This document shows positions 2,334-29,394 of a stretch of DNA of 64,000 nt, one piece after another; positions within the stretch are counted from its first letter, which is position 1, and every line of letters starts with the position of its first letter. The DNA lies in contig JAAXGZ010000003.1 in the NCBI GenBank assembly GCA_012271135.1, positions 452-64,451 of the forward strand, read 5' to 3'. The DNA comes from Caldilineales bacterium. Lineage in GTDB: Bacteria; Chloroflexota; Anaerolineae; Caldilineales; Caldilineaceae. Below the pieces are notes generated by a model. The model did not search any database, was not told where the DNA came from, and saw only the letters and a program-made list of their open reading frames with translations. A program made the position numbers and the translations under genes.

Positions 2334-3716
2334 ATGGAAACCCGACTAATGCAGTTTGCCCGTGCGTTGCGGGCTGCCGGGGTGCCGGTGAGCATGGCCG
2401 AAACGGTGGATGCGGCGGGAGCCCTTACCGCCCTGGGCATCAAGGATCGGGAACCATTCCGCATCAGCTTGCGTTCCACGCTGATCAAGCGCACCATCCA
2501 CCTGCCGGTCTTCGACGAACTGTTCCCCATCTTCTTCGACGGCAAGGCCGAACTTCCGCCCGACATGGACAACGCTCTGGAAAACCTGTCGGACGAGGAG
2601 GCGGAGCAGTTGGCGTTGGCACTCAGGCAGCTGAAGGACGACATCGCCGACAGCCTGCGCCGCTTGCTGCGGGGCGAGCCCCTGACGCGGCAGGACCTCA
2701 ATCAACTGGCGGCCATGACGGGCCTGGACCGGGCCCGCAACATGCGCTGGAGCGAATGGATGGTGCGGCGCATGCAGGCCGCCCTGAAGCACGACAGCGT
2801 GCGCCGGGCCATGGCCGAGATTGCCAAGTTGCTGGAACAGGTCGGCTTCTCCAAGGAACGCCTCGACGAATTGCGCGCAATGCTGCAGGCCAACATCGAG
2901 GCCGAGACCGGACAGCTGCAGAACTTCGCCGGCCAGCGCATCACGGACAACATGCAGGCCAGGCCTCCGTCCGAGGATGTCGAGGATTTGCTGCACGCTC
3001 CGTTCGGCCGTCTGGGCGAGGACGAGATGAACGTTCTGCGTCAGGAGGTGCGGCGTCTATCTGCGGCGCTCAGGAGTCGGATTTCGCTGCGGCAGAAGCG
3101 ACAGAAGACCGGAACCCTGGACTTGAAGTCCACCATCCGCCGGAACTTGGGGCACGGGGGCGTGCCGTTCACTCTCAGCTACAAGCGGCGCCAAAAGAAG
3201 CCGCGGCTGGTGGTCATCTGCGACGTTTCGACCTCGATGCGCTACTGCACCGAACTCATGCTGAGCCTGATCCACGCCATGCAGGACCAAATCTCGCGCA
3301 CCTATGCCTTCGCCTTCAACGACCATCTGGAATACATAACCCCCGATCTGGCCCACGGTTCGGCCCAGGAGGCGGTGGACCGCGTGCTGGTCCGCATGCC
3401 GCCCGGCCACTATAGTACGGACCTGGGCGGAAGCCTGGCCGAGTTCGACCGCGAGTGGCTCGATCTGGTCAACCACCGGACCACCCTTCTGATGGTGGGT
3501 GACGGACGCAACAACTTCAGGGATCCGGAGACGGGCATCTTTCAGGAGATGGCCCGACGCTGCACCCGGACCATCTGGCTCAACCCGGAACCGCCCATGC
3601 TGTGGGGTACCGGGGACAGTGACATGAACGAGTACCTGCCCTTCTGCGACCACGTGCTGCAGGTGCAGACCATGGCGGAACTGACCGCGGCGGTCGACGA
3701 GCTGCTGACCCGCTGA
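2334..3716 (+). CDS. VWA-domain protein, CoxE-like partner of MoxR
   Basis: 460-aa ORF. The N-terminus is FARALRAAGVPVSMAETVDAAGAL. The C-terminal VWA fold has LVVICDVSTSM (MIDAS-like DxSxS) and TTLLMVGDGRNN. It starts 40 nt downstream of the MoxR gene. Confidence 0.85.
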   Translation: METRLMQFARALRAAGVPVSMAETVDAAGALTALGIKDREPFRISLRSTLIKRTIHLPVFDELFPIFFDGKAELPPDMDNALENLSDEEAEQLALALRQLKDDIADSLRRLLRGEPLTRQDLNQLAAMTGLDRARNMRWSEWMVRRMQAALKHDSVRRAMAEIAKLLEQVGFSKERLDELRAMLQANIEAETGQLQNFAGQRITDNMQARPPSEDVEDLLHAPFGRLGEDEMNVLRQEVRRLSAALRSRISLRQKRQKTGTLDLKSTIRRNLGHGGVPFTLSYKRRQKKPRLVVICDVSTSMRYCTELMLSLIHAMQDQISRTYAFAFNDHLEYITPDLAHGSAQEAVDRVLVRMPPGHYSTDLGGSLAEFDREWLDLVNHRTTLLMVGDGRNNFRDPETGIFQEMARRCTRTIWLNPEPPMLWGTGDSDMNEYLPFCDHVLQVQTMAELTAAVDELLTR

Positions 3717-26153: not shown

Positions 26154-26354
26154 TCAGTGGCTTTCAACCTCTCCCACGTTGGAGAAGTTGGTGATTGCTA
26201 TCTCGCCCTCGGGAAACTCGGCCACAATCTTCAACTGCCCGCCCACTGCCTCGACGTAGGACCGGAGGCTTGACACGTACATGTCATCGATGCGCTGTTG
26301 GCGCTTCGGCGGGAAGTTCTTGGTCAACTCGTTGAACGGATGGCGTCCACTCAT
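26154..26354 (-). pseudogene. XRE-type antitoxin relic with an in-frame deletion of the HTH
   Basis: 66 aa: MSGRHPFNELTKNFPPKRQQRIDDMYVSSLRSYVEAVGGQLKIVAEFPEGEIAITNFSNV. The N-terminal and C-terminal segments match the roughly 100-110-aa XRE antitoxin family (M..H.F.EL....P...... / TDMY.S.LR.Y.EA.GG.L.I.A.FP). The central HTH of about 40 aa is missing. Confidence 0.55.
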
Positions 26355-26397
26355 TTGATCGACCCCTCCAGTCTCGGTTCTGGATTAGGTTGTAGGA

Positions 26398-27678
26398 ATG
26401 GAAAAAGCTAGAGCCTTCATTTTCGGTGTGCTTGCGACCATGTTGGTACTGGTCGTGTTGGCATTCTTCGTCGTCAACGACCGATTCGGTTTGATGCTGA
26501 AACTGGTGGGTCCTAAGTATGAAGTTCCGCAAGAACACTTAGATAAGCTTCAAGAAATGTTTCCCGCTCCTTCGACTTTGGATCGTTCTTTAGATGCAAA
26601 TGAACAACTGTGCGTATTCCAAGTCAACCCCGGCATCGTAGGTGATGTCGATATTTTCGACAAAATCCCTGATAGTTGGTGGGCCAAAACCCTGACAGAT
26701 CGAGAGATCAACGAGCCACAACTTGAGGAAGACTACTTCCTGTTGCTAGATGGGACACCAGGGTACGGCGATGACGAGTTCTGGTTCCATGTGCGCCATT
26801 TCAAGGCTTCAGCACCCACGATCATGCTGGAGGAGGGCTGGGTTCGAGCGACAAACCTTCAGGCCCAGACACCTGAATGCAGTCTGGGTGGACTCGTGTC
26901 CGAAGATGTGCCTGTCCCCACGGCCACCCGCGGCCCAACGGCTACAGCCACTGTGGTCGTGTCTGTGGTGACACCGGTACAAGGGGAGTCACCCTGCACC
27001 TATCGGGCCCAGCCCGGCATTGTGGGCGACATCGACATATTTGATGCGATTCCCCAAGACTGGCTGGACAAGACGCTGCACGACCGCGAGATTGACGAAC
27101 CCCAACCGGAAACCGATTTCTTCCTGTTGCTCGATGAGACTCCGGGCTACGGTGACGATGAGTACTGGCTCCATGTGCGTCATTTCAAGGCTTCAGCACC
27201 CACGATCATGCTGGAGGAGGGCTGGATCCGAGTGACAAACCTTCAGGCGCTGACACCTGAATGCAGTCTGGGTGGACTCGTGTCCGAAGATGTGCCTGTC
27301 CCCACGGCCATCCGCGGCCCGACGGCTACGGCCGCAGTGGTCGTTCCCGTGGTGACACCGGTACAAGGGGAGCTACCTTGCATCTATCGGGCCCAGCCCG
27401 GCATTGTGGGCGACATTGACATTTTCGATGAGATTCCCCAAGGCTGGTTGGACAAGACGCTGCACGACCGCGAGATTGACGAACCCCAACCGGAAACCGA
27501 TTTCTTCCTGTTGCTTGATGAGACTCCGGGCTACGGTGACGACGAGTACTGGCTCCATGTTCATCACTTCAAGGCATTGGCTCCGGACATCATGTTGGAG
27601 AAGGGCTGGGTGCGGGTTACGAACCTCCAAGCCTTGACAACTGAGTGTACGCTTGAAGCACTCATGCAACATCGTTAA
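26398..27678 (+). CDS. membrane-anchored hypothetical protein made of three 128-aa tandem repeats
   Basis: N-terminal TM helix AFIFGVLATMLVLVVLAFFVV. Repeats begin at Cys72, Cys200 and Cys328, and the third lacks the linker. Each unit reads C..(R/Q)..PGIVGD(V/I)DIFD.IP..W..KTL.DREI.EPQ.E.D(Y/F)FLLLD.TPGYGDDE(F/Y)W(F/L)HV.HFKA.AP.IMLE.GW.R.TNLQA.T.EC. GC content is clearly lower than in flanking DNA. Confidence 0.7.
   Translation: MEKARAFIFGVLATMLVLVVLAFFVVNDRFGLMLKLVGPKYEVPQEHLDKLQEMFPAPSTLDRSLDANEQLCVFQVNPGIVGDVDIFDKIPDSWWAKTLTDREINEPQLEEDYFLLLDGTPGYGDDEFWFHVRHFKASAPTIMLEEGWVRATNLQAQTPECSLGGLVSEDVPVPTATRGPTATATVVVSVVTPVQGESPCTYRAQPGIVGDIDIFDAIPQDWLDKTLHDREIDEPQPETDFFLLLDETPGYGDDEYWLHVRHFKASAPTIMLEEGWIRVTNLQALTPECSLGGLVSEDVPVPTAIRGPTATAAVVVPVVTPVQGELPCIYRAQPGIVGDIDIFDEIPQGWLDKTLHDREIDEPQPETDFFLLLDETPGYGDDEYWLHVHHFKALAPDIMLEKGWVRVTNLQALTTECTLEALMQHR
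26611..27675 (+). repeat. 384-bp tandem repeat, 2.8 copies (26611, 26995, 27379)
   Basis: Exact period of 384 nt. Copies 2 and 3 are near-identical at the nucleotide level; copy 1 is more diverged. Confidence 0.85.
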
Positions 27679-27849
27679 CCAACTGAGGCTTGGGAAGGAA
27701 TTCGAGATGGCCCACCAGTGTTACTGCACCCAATAGCAGTCGTGTCAAGGAACCCCCAAACTTGCCTATGGGGATGGAAACTTCATCTCCTTTCGACGAT
27801 TGGCATCCCATTGCTTGATTGAAGTATGGGCTTACGGTCGCCTCTCGGA

Positions 27850-29010
27850 TCACGGCTCCTCTTCCGTCAGAATTCGCAAGTATTCTTGGTACGCGTACAC
27901 CCGACCGCGTCGCTTGCCCGTGATCTCGCGCAATACGCCAAGGTCTTGCAGCAACCCTATCGCCTTGCTGGATGTTGGGGCTGTTAGACCGAGTAGCCCT
28001 GAAGCACTGGGGACAGTGACGACCGGATTGGACGGTAGGCAGTCGAGCAATCGGATCGCCGCGACCGTGGGGCTTTTGTGTTCGAGGAGGCGGCTGCGGT
28101 TACGTTCAATCAGCGCATGGAGAGCCTGAGCGACACGCACTCCGTCGGCTGCGGCTGTCTGTACACAGCCGAGAAAAAACCGGGTCCAACCTTCCCAGTC
28201 TCCAGTTTGGCGTACGGCATCCAAATGCGCGTAGTACTCTTGCTGGTTCCGTTTCAAGGCCAAACTGAGGTAGAGCAGAGGCTGGTCGAGTAGACCCCAA
28301 TGCTCCAACAGCAAGGCAATCAACAGCCGGCCGATGCGTCCGTTACCATCTAGGAAAGGATGGATTGTCTCGAACTGCACATGGGCCAGACCAGTTCTCA
28401 CGAGAGGTGGGAGATCGTGTTCCGCATGGAGCCATCTCTCCAGTGCACCGAGCGCGCTGGCCACCTCATCCGGTGGTGGGGGTACAAAATGGGCGTTGCC
28501 GGGGCGACTGCCACCGATCCAGTTCTGCGAACGACGGAGTTCCCCCGGTAGTTTGTCTTCGCCACGAACGCCGGCCATGAGAATTCGGTGCGCCTCACAC
28601 AACAAGCGGATGCTGATCGGCAGTCCTTTGGGATCTGCAATCCGAGCCCGAGTGTGCGCTAGGGCATCCATATAGTTGAGGACCTCGCGTACATCATCCG
28701 GTCGATCACTGTGCTGGGTAGCCTCAAATGCTACAACGTCCTGAAGCGTTGCCTGCGTGCCTTCGATTTGCGATGTGACCACTGCCTCCTTGCGAACGAA
28801 TCCGTACAGGAACAAGCCTGGGTTCGGTACCACCGAGCCCGCGACTGCAAGTCGTGCCAGTTCCGCTAATGCAGCAGTATGTAGATTGGAGGTCAGGTCA
28901 TCCAACTCCAGCGGAGGCTCGACCGGGGGGAGTGGGAAGGGCACAAACGCGCGTACCTCTTCTCCACCTTTGGTACTGGTGATGCGGTATCGACCGGTCT
29001 GACGAGTCAC
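27850..29010 (-). CDS. Fic-family protein (AMPylase-type) with N-terminal inhibitory helix and C-terminal wHTH
   Basis: Fic motif HPFLDGNGRIGRLL. Inhibitory motif TSQIEG ([S/T]xxxE[G/N]). C-terminal wHTH is LGLTAPTSSKAIGLLQDLGVLREITGKRRGRVY. The GTG at 29010 has gaggag 9 nt upstream, and the longer ORF reaching 29205 lacks homology-like sequence. Confidence 0.85.
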   Translation of the reverse strand: MTRQTGRYRITSTKGGEEVRAFVPFPLPPVEPPLELDDLTSNLHTAALAELARLAVAGSVVPNPGLFLYGFVRKEAVVTSQIEGTQATLQDVVAFEATQHSDRPDDVREVLNYMDALAHTRARIADPKGLPISIRLLCEAHRILMAGVRGEDKLPGELRRSQNWIGGSRPGNAHFVPPPPDEVASALGALERWLHAEHDLPPLVRTGLAHVQFETIHPFLDGNGRIGRLLIALLLEHWGLLDQPLLYLSLALKRNQQEYYAHLDAVRQTGDWEGWTRFFLGCVQTAAADGVRVAQALHALIERNRSRLLEHKSPTVAAIRLLDCLPSNPVVTVPSASGLLGLTAPTSSKAIGLLQDLGVLREITGKRRGRVYAYQEYLRILTEEEP

Positions 29011-29040
29011 AGGGGAAAGCTCCTCAATCTTTCTCAGGGG

Positions 29041-29097
29041 GTTAAGAAACGATCGTTGCTTAATGTACACCACAAAGAAACGATCGTTTCTTTGTGG
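29041..29097. promoter_or_regulatory. two adjacent palindromic operator-like sites upstream of fic
   Basis: There is a perfect 28-bp palindrome ccacaaagaaacgatcgtttctttgtgg (29070..29097), and an imperfect copy ttaagaaacgatcgttgcttaa (29042..29063). Both share the core AGAAACGATCGTT. They lie 30-90 nt upstream of the GTG start. Confidence 0.5.
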
Positions 29098-29394
29098 CAG
29101 ATGCGCGGAGAGTTGCTCAATCCAGACAGCAAGGCGGTTGCTTGCTATCCAACAGTGCCTTGCAGGTGGCGAGGTTACAGGGGTTCTGAACGTTGGGCTT
29201 GGCAACTGGGTGGCGGTGGATCGAGAGTGCTACAACCACGCCAGTCAGGAATTGGACCTGTGGCCTACCACGTGGCAGAGGTGAATCTTCTTCCGTTGAG
29301 GTGCCCTGCCAAGACTCGTTATCAGCATGGCCCGGAGTTGGGATGCAGGCAAAGCCCGAGCCAATCATGGGGTTTGAGGGCCTCGAGTGGTTGG

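Follow-up and report, generated by a model that had tools for sequence, protein, structure and literature searches.

A candidate new domain family carried in tandem copies by a membrane-anchored protein of a Caldilineales bacterium

What is the domain that is repeated three times in the membrane-anchored protein P0001, and what might a protein built in this way do? The gene lies on contig JAAXGZ010000003.1 of a Caldilineales bacterium (assembly GCA_012271135.1), within the stretch of 64,000 nucleotides (positions 452 to 64,451) that was analysed here and is called the window. An earlier reading of this DNA, made without database searches (the sequence-only reading), had found no name for the domain. 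Searches of Pfam, NCBIfam, PHROGs, PADLOC and the PDB sequences returned nothing above threshold for the window protein, and Foldseek gave no significant match in PDB or in BFVD, a set of predicted viral structures. We therefore consider the domain a candidate new family, or domain of unknown function (DUF), which appears to be lineage-restricted and without described relatives.

A profile built from 14 aligned domains, drawn from three protein architectures, found no PDB chain at E ≤ 10. The best PADLOC match had an E-value of 8e-4 (17.6 bits) and the best PHROG match, to a family without known function, one of 0.0023; with neither collection did any stretch pass alone. Peptidase_M23, in the form of a degenerate LytM domain, was not found in P0001, P0006 or P0007 in a hidden Markov model (HMM) scan at E ≤ 1. 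The sole Pfam name to emerge was CsoSCA_N (PF20687), the N-terminal domain of the carboxysome shell carbonic anhydrase, with an E-value of 3e-05 on residues 396-423, the last 28 residues of domain 3. A relationship to this domain is effectively refuted. At 24.6 bits the match falls short of the gathering cut-off of 27.5 bits and covers only 28 of the 93 profile positions, the search of PDB chains at E ≤ 10 included no solved CsoSCA chain among its results, and the topology conflicts, since the window protein is predicted to be membrane-anchored and extracytoplasmic and has no catalytic domain. Catalytic domains of CsoSCA downstream of the match were rejected as well, with TIGR02701 at 9.8 bits against a cut-off of 241 and the protein ending 3 residues past the match. 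Weaker CsoSCA_N matches fall on the same segment of P0006-P0008 and are not independent evidence.

The repeats are laid out with exact regularity. Tandem Repeats Finder gave a period of 384 bp with zero indels, and the pattern C.[FY][QRK]..PG occurs at residues 72, 200 and 328, a step of exactly 128 aa, so that the 2.8 exactly phased copies described earlier are confirmed both by the program and by the spacing of Cys72, Cys200 and Cys328. Each unit consists of a core of ~94 aa and a linker of 34 aa, which is absent from the third unit and in which 69% of the residues are Pro, Thr, Val or Ala. The motifs GYGDDE[YF]W and MLE.GW.R.TNL and the linker PVPTA.RGPTATA, all listed in the sequence-only reading, are present in the protein. 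Its statement that each unit has two conserved Cys also holds, but their spacing is C-x88-C and not C-x111-C.

Conservation across the 14 domains is strong, with 40 of the 105 columns invariant and both Cys present in all 14. The family signature comprises the C-x88-C core with GD.DIFD, DREI.EP, DDE.W and GW.R..NL in an extracytoplasmic protein, and every carrier has either a transmembrane anchor or a signal peptide. Asp or Glu occupies ten of the 40 invariant columns (in GD.DIFD, DREI.EP and DDE.W), and the cores contain 16-20 Asp/Glu versus 6-10 Lys/Arg, with isoelectric points of 4.1-4.8 (~4.2). The invariance of the Cys pair, together with five DsbA-like Thioredoxin_4 matches in the same genome, suggests that the pair forms a disulfide stapling the termini of the domain. 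Of the extracytoplasmic, disulfide-bonded fold proposed earlier, the location, the invariant Cys and the DsbA-like genes are thus in place, and the bond itself we infer.

The domain could be modelled with confidence. An AlphaFold2 (AF2) model of residues 194-298, computed on the 14-domain alignment, reached a predicted local distance difference test score (pLDDT) of 89.3 and a predicted TM-score (pTM) of 0.81. It has eight strands and two short helices, and a second model based on a different alignment had the same order of strands and helices. The confidence of the model, the existence of forms with one, two, three and five copies, and the use of one unit as a C-terminal addition to another protein argue together that the domain is an autonomous folded module outside the cytoplasm.

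The sequence-only reading had also remarked on a resemblance to bacterial SH3-like domains, and this gained weak support. Foldseek comparison of the domain model with PDB and BFVD gave nothing at E ≤ 0.001. The weak PDB list was topped by SH3 domains (7cso, 2kym and 2dl7), with E-values of 0.47-3 and query-normalised TM-scores of 0.38-0.40; the target-normalised TM-score of 2dl7 was 0.54, at a non-significant E-value. In BFVD, two phage peptidoglycan peptidases were matched with query-normalised TM-scores of 0.44-0.49 and non-significant E-values of 0.4-0.65. When the profile was aligned by hhalign with the 22 SH3_3 domains of its own genome, a single local match of 24 columns was obtained (P 0.036, probability 1.4%), in which the segment DDEYW..V...GWVR..NL falls on the last two SH3b strands. 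Membership at the HMM level did not stand: hmmscan at E ≤ 1 found no match to an SH3 family in P0001, P0006, P0007 or P0008, and the SH3_3 model finds 27 canonical matches elsewhere in the same genome. We regard an SH3-like core as somewhat more probable than its absence, and as a lead to follow, not as membership of the family.

Set beside SH3b domains (SH3_3, PF08239; the targeting modules of lysostaphin and ALE-1), the repeat domain is likewise a small extracytoplasmic beta module that is often in tandem, and can stand C-terminally as SH3b does on secreted wall enzymes; it is to the W..V ... GWV....L pattern conserved in the last two SH3b strands that hhalign aligns it. It differs in being ~30 residues longer, in its two short helices, its invariant Cys pair and its strong acidity, and in the lack of an HMM match. 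The extracellular protein MIA (melanoma inhibitory activity) offers a comparable principle, a secreted SH3-like domain stabilised by disulfides, and was returned by Foldseek at rank 38 (1i1j); at a TM-score of 0.30 and an E-value of 3.6, and being eukaryotic, it is an analogy of principle and not a homologue. As a side observation on SH3 domains in this genome, contig C125 carries an open frame of at least 1249 aa with at least nine tandem canonical SH3_3 repeats (G000:C125:26-2419, minus strand), which runs to within 26 bases of the contig end.

The N-terminal single transmembrane helix noted earlier was recovered by Kyte-Doolittle analysis, in which the 19-residue maximum is 3.04 at residue 8 and the profile elsewhere in the protein never exceeds 1.4. 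Residues 6-26 contain no charged residue, K3 and R5 precede them and no A-x-A cleavage site follows, so this segment is best read as a signal-anchor; the helix is kept in P0002-P0007. The anchor would leave the repeats outside the cell, and the extracytoplasmic placement suggested by the sequence-only reading is further in keeping with a classical signal peptide in the single-domain relative P0008.

Selection on the gene was estimated as the Nei-Gojobori ratio of nonsynonymous to synonymous substitution rates (dN/dS). The whole-gene ratio was 0.24-0.34. In the comparison with the orthologue in L005 it was 0.23 in the three domains and 0.72-0.89 in the linkers and in residues 1-65; for the hydroxylase and ABC permease genes nearby it was 0.04-0.15. 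The domains are thus constrained in sequence and the spacers in composition only. The reading frame is intact in at least five assemblies, with orthologues 77-89% identical to the window protein, which, taken with a dN/dS of 0.23 in the domains versus 0.7-0.9 in the linkers and N-terminus, indicates a real gene maintained by selection.

Relatives are few. A word-indexed search of 5.8 billion clusters retrieved 9 proteins, and an exhaustive HMMER scan of 1.84 billion representatives yielded three real clusters at 50% identity and a decayed 69-aa fragment, P0012. Two other weak HMMER matches were discarded: P0011 is low-complexity junk, and P0013 (E 7e-4) has repeats of an unrelated family and was judged spurious. 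A search of one genome per GTDB species added one further locus, in a metagenome-assembled genome titled Caldilineaceae bacterium. Among 150 other genomes of the same family, an intact domain was found in 1 only, a member of the window's genus, and short relics were found in three genomes of that genus, including the one with the intact domain. The named record and the genome scans place the family in the Caldilineaceae.

Three architectures were distinguished. The window protein and P0002-P0005 have a transmembrane anchor and three units (five in L032). P0006 and P0007 combine the anchor with two units and come from an organism of lower G+C content (~54%), the GatB of which is 70% identical to GatB of the window's genome. 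In P0008-P0010, a signal peptide and an uncharacterised domain of ~330 aa are followed by a single unit, which has the TTECTLE tail of a terminal unit. The N-terminal part of these proteins otherwise occurs as a stand-alone protein of 316-336 aa in the same syntenic position behind a GT2 gene, and we conclude from this arrangement that an unrelated secreted protein acquired a terminal unit at its C-terminus. The fusion gives no functional clue, as the N-terminal part has no Pfam match, a poor AF2 model (pLDDT 62) and no Foldseek match. This secreted Caldilineaceae family of ~320 aa, which lacks Pfam domains and has GT2 upstream (L007:6882-8336; L029 and L030:6001-6960), is an observation in its own right; three of its members have gained the repeat domain. 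Half-domain trees did not pair units 1 and 3 with particular domains of the two-unit proteins, the two-unit domains grouping together (93/89 support), and we claim no such orthology.

How the three units arose can be read from their DNA, which we compared register by register. Between units 2 and 3, identity is 94% in the first 186 nt and ~70% in the remainder of the domain, so that the near-identity of copies 2 and 3 claimed earlier applies to the first part and fails elsewhere. Unit 2 instead resembles unit 1 in the 3' part of the domain (95% from nt ~183) and in the linker (90%). Unit 1 has a 5' half of its own type, which shares 67-69% identity with units 2 and 3 but 92-93% with the orthologous unit 1. 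The last 5' mismatch between units 1 and 2 is at unit nt 175 and the first 3' mismatch between units 2 and 3 at nt 183, which bounds the junction. With the type of unit 1 called A and that of unit 3 called B, unit 2 is a B5'/A3' hybrid, as a single unequal crossover leading from an A-B ancestor to A-(B5'/A3')-B would give.

The orthologues L004 and L005 (dS 0.2-0.4) have this mosaic too, which is therefore older than their divergence. This goes against the recent expansion that the sequence-only reading had proposed: the three-unit array is old, with gene conversion keeping its units alike. Within a genome, the 5' halves of units 2 and 3 share 94-98% identity, versus 86-89% between orthologous copies of unit 2, and both in the window and in L005 the 3' halves of units 1 and 2 share 95-99%. 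Since the shared halves are closer within a genome than between orthologues, conversion is still ongoing and holds them 94-99% alike within each genome.

Copy number was checked both as a possible assembly artefact and for variation among strains. Four other independent assemblies (P0002, P0003, P0005/L004 and L031) also have three units, so the count is not an artefact. Variation was found as a five-unit allele, L032:3424-5473 (plus strand), which has other genomic surroundings, with bPH_1 upstream. The 5' halves of its units 2-4 share 97-99% identity, and its unit 3 is apparently shifted in frame by a one-base difference in an A-run (A4 where the other unit has A3). Further unequal exchange produced this allele.

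A hint of function comes from the two-unit homologue. In L001:6012-11941, next to gatB, genes for a RodZ-like HTH_25 protein, an Amidase_3 protein, the two-unit protein and an 854-aa TPR-SLT lytic transglycosylase are found together, with the Amidase_3 and two-unit genes between the other two, and the two-unit gene overlaps the stop codon (ATGA) of the Amidase_3 gene, the product of which is membrane-anchored by a transmembrane segment and consists of the catalytic domain only. The SLT and GatB side recurs in L006, where the locus is cut 34 bp upstream of the gene. Of the roles suggested by the sequence-only reading, that of a cell-wall binder gains context from the Amidase_3, RodZ-like and SLT genes, and those of receptor or adhesin and of phage exclusion gain none.

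The tandem copies, the C-terminal add-on use, the SH3-like hints and the wall-gene operon of the sister lineage together suggest a non-catalytic binding role. We propose, tentatively and with a confidence a little under even, that the protein is a multivalent scaffold binding the envelope or peptidoglycan and possibly a partner of the amidase. It would be a non-enzymatic envelope protein held in the cytoplasmic membrane by its N-terminal signal-anchor, with the Pro/Thr/Val/Ala-rich linkers serving as spacers and three acidic, beta-rich domains displayed outside the cell; Chloroflexota are usually taken to lack an outer membrane. Each domain might bind one repeat of a polymer in the envelope, either peptidoglycan or a glycan linked to the wall, possibly aided by cations, a step to which we give somewhat less than an even chance. 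Two to five copies in tandem could then confer avidity and reach on a wall-binding scaffold, and in the lower-GC sister lineage the protein, presumably co-transcribed with the membrane-anchored Amidase_3, could position or regulate that enzyme.

Several observations weigh against this proposal. Wall-binding SH3b and GW modules are usually basic, and the present domain, with its excess of acidic over basic residues, is unlike them. The structural similarity to SH3 is non-significant (the best PDB E-value being 0.47), and the absence of any SH3 HMM match points the same way. The amidase linkage is known from one lineage and one complete locus, L001, and in the window's own genome the same cluster (contig C78) lacks the repeat gene, with Amidase_3 and SLT 60 bp apart and nothing between them, so the partnership cannot be obligate. 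The window copy lies in an island of toxin-antitoxin (TA) and restriction-modification (RM) genes and has foreign codon usage, and most congeners do not have the gene, an intact domain being present in just 1 of the 19 further genomes examined from the genus.

Other explanations were weighed. If the domain had a new fold and were not a divergent SH3, the proteins might be Caldilineaceae-specific membrane-tethered partners that position or regulate Amidase_3 during wall remodelling, with the island copies spread horizontally and repeat number tuning reach; we hold this to be distinctly unlikely. The acidity would suit a cation-dependent adhesin or matrix binder (for a host, a biofilm or a sheath, and not for the cell's own wall), in which clusters such as those contributing ten Asp/Glu to the 40 invariant positions would bind Ca2+ or Mg2+ and repeat number would set reach. 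The low isoelectric point, the copy number of three versus five, as in many surface adhesins, the accessory and patchy distribution and the origin of all relatives from metagenome assemblies are in keeping with it. However, no known Ca-binding motif family was matched, the two-unit form sits within a housekeeping cluster for wall morphogenesis, and a transmembrane anchor with 34-aa linkers would have limited reach past the wall, and we consider this explanation unlikely.

The setting of the window copy, amid TA and RM genes and insertion sequence (IS) relics and beside a Fic gene, together with its foreign GC3 (G+C content at third codon positions; 0.62 versus 0.85), its clean presence/absence polymorphism and relocation and its variable repeat number, could instead suggest a surface protein of a defence or TA island that excludes phages or masks their receptors. 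Neither PADLOC nor PHROG produced a match and no phage genes are adjacent; moreover, the domains are under purifying and not diversifying selection (dN/dS 0.23), and homologues also occur outside islands, in the amidase operon and downstream of a GT2 gene. Phage exclusion is accordingly quite improbable in our estimate. Still less credence is due to the idea that this accessory gene has no function and is selfish repeat DNA decaying towards the relics of sister species. In its favour one could cite the relics with stop codons in L005, L012-L014 and L032, the decayed fragment P0012, the frameshift in the five-unit allele and the loss of the gene from most congeners. The window reading frame and four orthologues are intact, the contrast between 0.23 in the domains and ~0.8 in the linkers bespeaks domain-specific constraint, and the 40 invariant columns hold over three architectures.

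The protein belongs to a familiar architectural class, and we see the repeat domain as a candidate new family within it. GW modules (Listeria InlB and Ami, SH3_8) are likewise tandem SH3-like modules of ~80-100 aa with an invariant Gly-Trp, and their copy number tunes the strength of association with the wall. They are basic, bind lipoteichoic acid and are found in proteins without a membrane anchor, unlike the acidic, anchored protein described here, with which they share no sequence match. With the alpha C/Rib-type surface proteins of Gram-positive bacteria the protein has in common near-identical in-frame DNA repeats, homogenised by recombination and variable in number among strains; the domain is unrelated, and an N-terminal transmembrane anchor in a chloroflexotal protein takes the place of an LPXTG/sortase signal, which is absent here. 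In being encoded with Amidase_3 (L001), and possibly acting on it, the protein recalls the LytM-type amidase activators EnvC and NlpD, but it has no LytM or coiled-coil domain, and the suggested partnership comes from gene overlap in one lineage.

The interest of the locus is in a confidently foldable extracytoplasmic domain of ~100 aa, a candidate DUF, in a poorly studied phylum with largely unexplored envelope biology. Its sister genomes also offer a model of domain evolution that includes a hybrid unit from unequal crossover, gene conversion, copy numbers of three to five, capture of a unit, gain and loss of a cassette and decay to relics. If the amidase link is true, the protein would represent a kind of wall-hydrolase partner not seen before. 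In practical terms the reach is small, given the narrow taxonomic range and the uncultured organisms.

As for the locus itself (Table 1), homology between the window and L032, where the gene has other surroundings, starts at ~26380 and ends at ~27843. In three other species of the genus (L012-L014), the hydroxylase, XRE and Fic genes are kept and exactly the gene-bearing 1443 bp of L005 are missing, replaced by 13 bp with CTCC microhomology at both junctions. The gene thus behaves as a relocatable and dispensable accessory cassette of ~1.44 kb with low GC3, in a variable TA/RM island. GC3 is 0.62 in the repeat gene and 0.60 in Fic versus 0.85-0.87 in the host genes upstream, a sugar ABC system and a fatty-acid hydroxylase. 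The G+C content of the repeat gene is 55% versus 62% across the window, and the gene, earlier called the AT-richest, does occupy the two 1-kb bins richest in AT. In codon usage it is close to the lower-GC lineage (local GC3 ~0.6), which suggests horizontal acquisition of the window copy.

Table 1. Features of the repeat gene and its surroundings in the window
Feature	Position	Strand	Remarks
Gene cassette	26380..27843	+	~-18 to +165 around the ORF; unit of presence/absence between genomes and of relocation
Open reading frame (ORF) of the three-domain protein (P0001)	26398..27678	+	426 aa plus stop; open frame, only long ORF at this place
Single transmembrane helix, residues 6-26	26413..26475	+	Predicted signal-anchor; K3 and R5 upstream of helix
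Juxtamembrane spacer, residues 27-71	26476..26610	+	dN/dS 0.72 for residues 1-65, almost neutral
Domain core 1, Cys72 to Cys161 plus 4 residues	26611..26892	+	Profile match E 5.5e-58
Linker 1, residues 166-199	26893..26994	+	Pro/Thr/Val/Ala-rich; dN/dS 0.89
Domain core 2 (hybrid unit), Cys200 to Cys289 plus 4 residues	26995..27276	+	AF2-modelled
Putative unequal-crossover junction inside unit 2	27169..27177	+	Switch from unit-3-like to unit-1-like
Linker 2, residues 294-327	27277..27378	+	dN/dS 0.72; 9 aa shorter in the L004 orthologue
Domain core 3 and C-terminal tail, Cys328 to Cys417 then LEALMQHR	27379..27675	+	Profile match E 1.2e-61
Fic gene	27850-29205	-	Fic_N, Fic, weak C-terminal HTH_13 match

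A short relic with stop codons, corresponding to a domain end and the start of a linker, is found at the gene site in L012-L014, and L032 has a relic at 3196-3297, ~130 bp upstream of the start of its five-unit gene. That the relics in L012-L014 are in-situ remains of the three-unit gene was rejected, as L005 carries the intact gene and, downstream of it, the orthologous relic. The presence of both in L005 indicates that the relic stems from an older copy.

The repeat gene is convergent with the fic gene, as stated earlier, with 171 bp between the stops. The sequence-only reading had suggested a check of co-occurrence with Fic, and this gave no association: Fic persists in the three species without the gene (L012-L014), and none of the one-unit, two-unit and five-unit relatives has Fic next to it. 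The sole Fic match in L005 is a C-terminal fragment, ~4 kb downstream and beyond IS110 and IS605 genes. The adjacency thus appears to be incidental. In the species without the cassette, the stretch from the relic to Fic holds two small overlapping reading frames of 100 and 170 aa without a Pfam match (L012:581-1392, minus strand, and likewise in L013 and L014), where the window has just those 171 bp between the repeat gene and Fic. On the other side, 43 bp from the repeat gene and divergent from it, the window has an XRE-like frame of 66 aa (26154-26354, minus strand) in which the helix-turn-helix is lost from the frame; its orthologues are longer, with 113 aa in L031 (5494-5835; HTH_37, E 3e-9) and 107 aa in L012.

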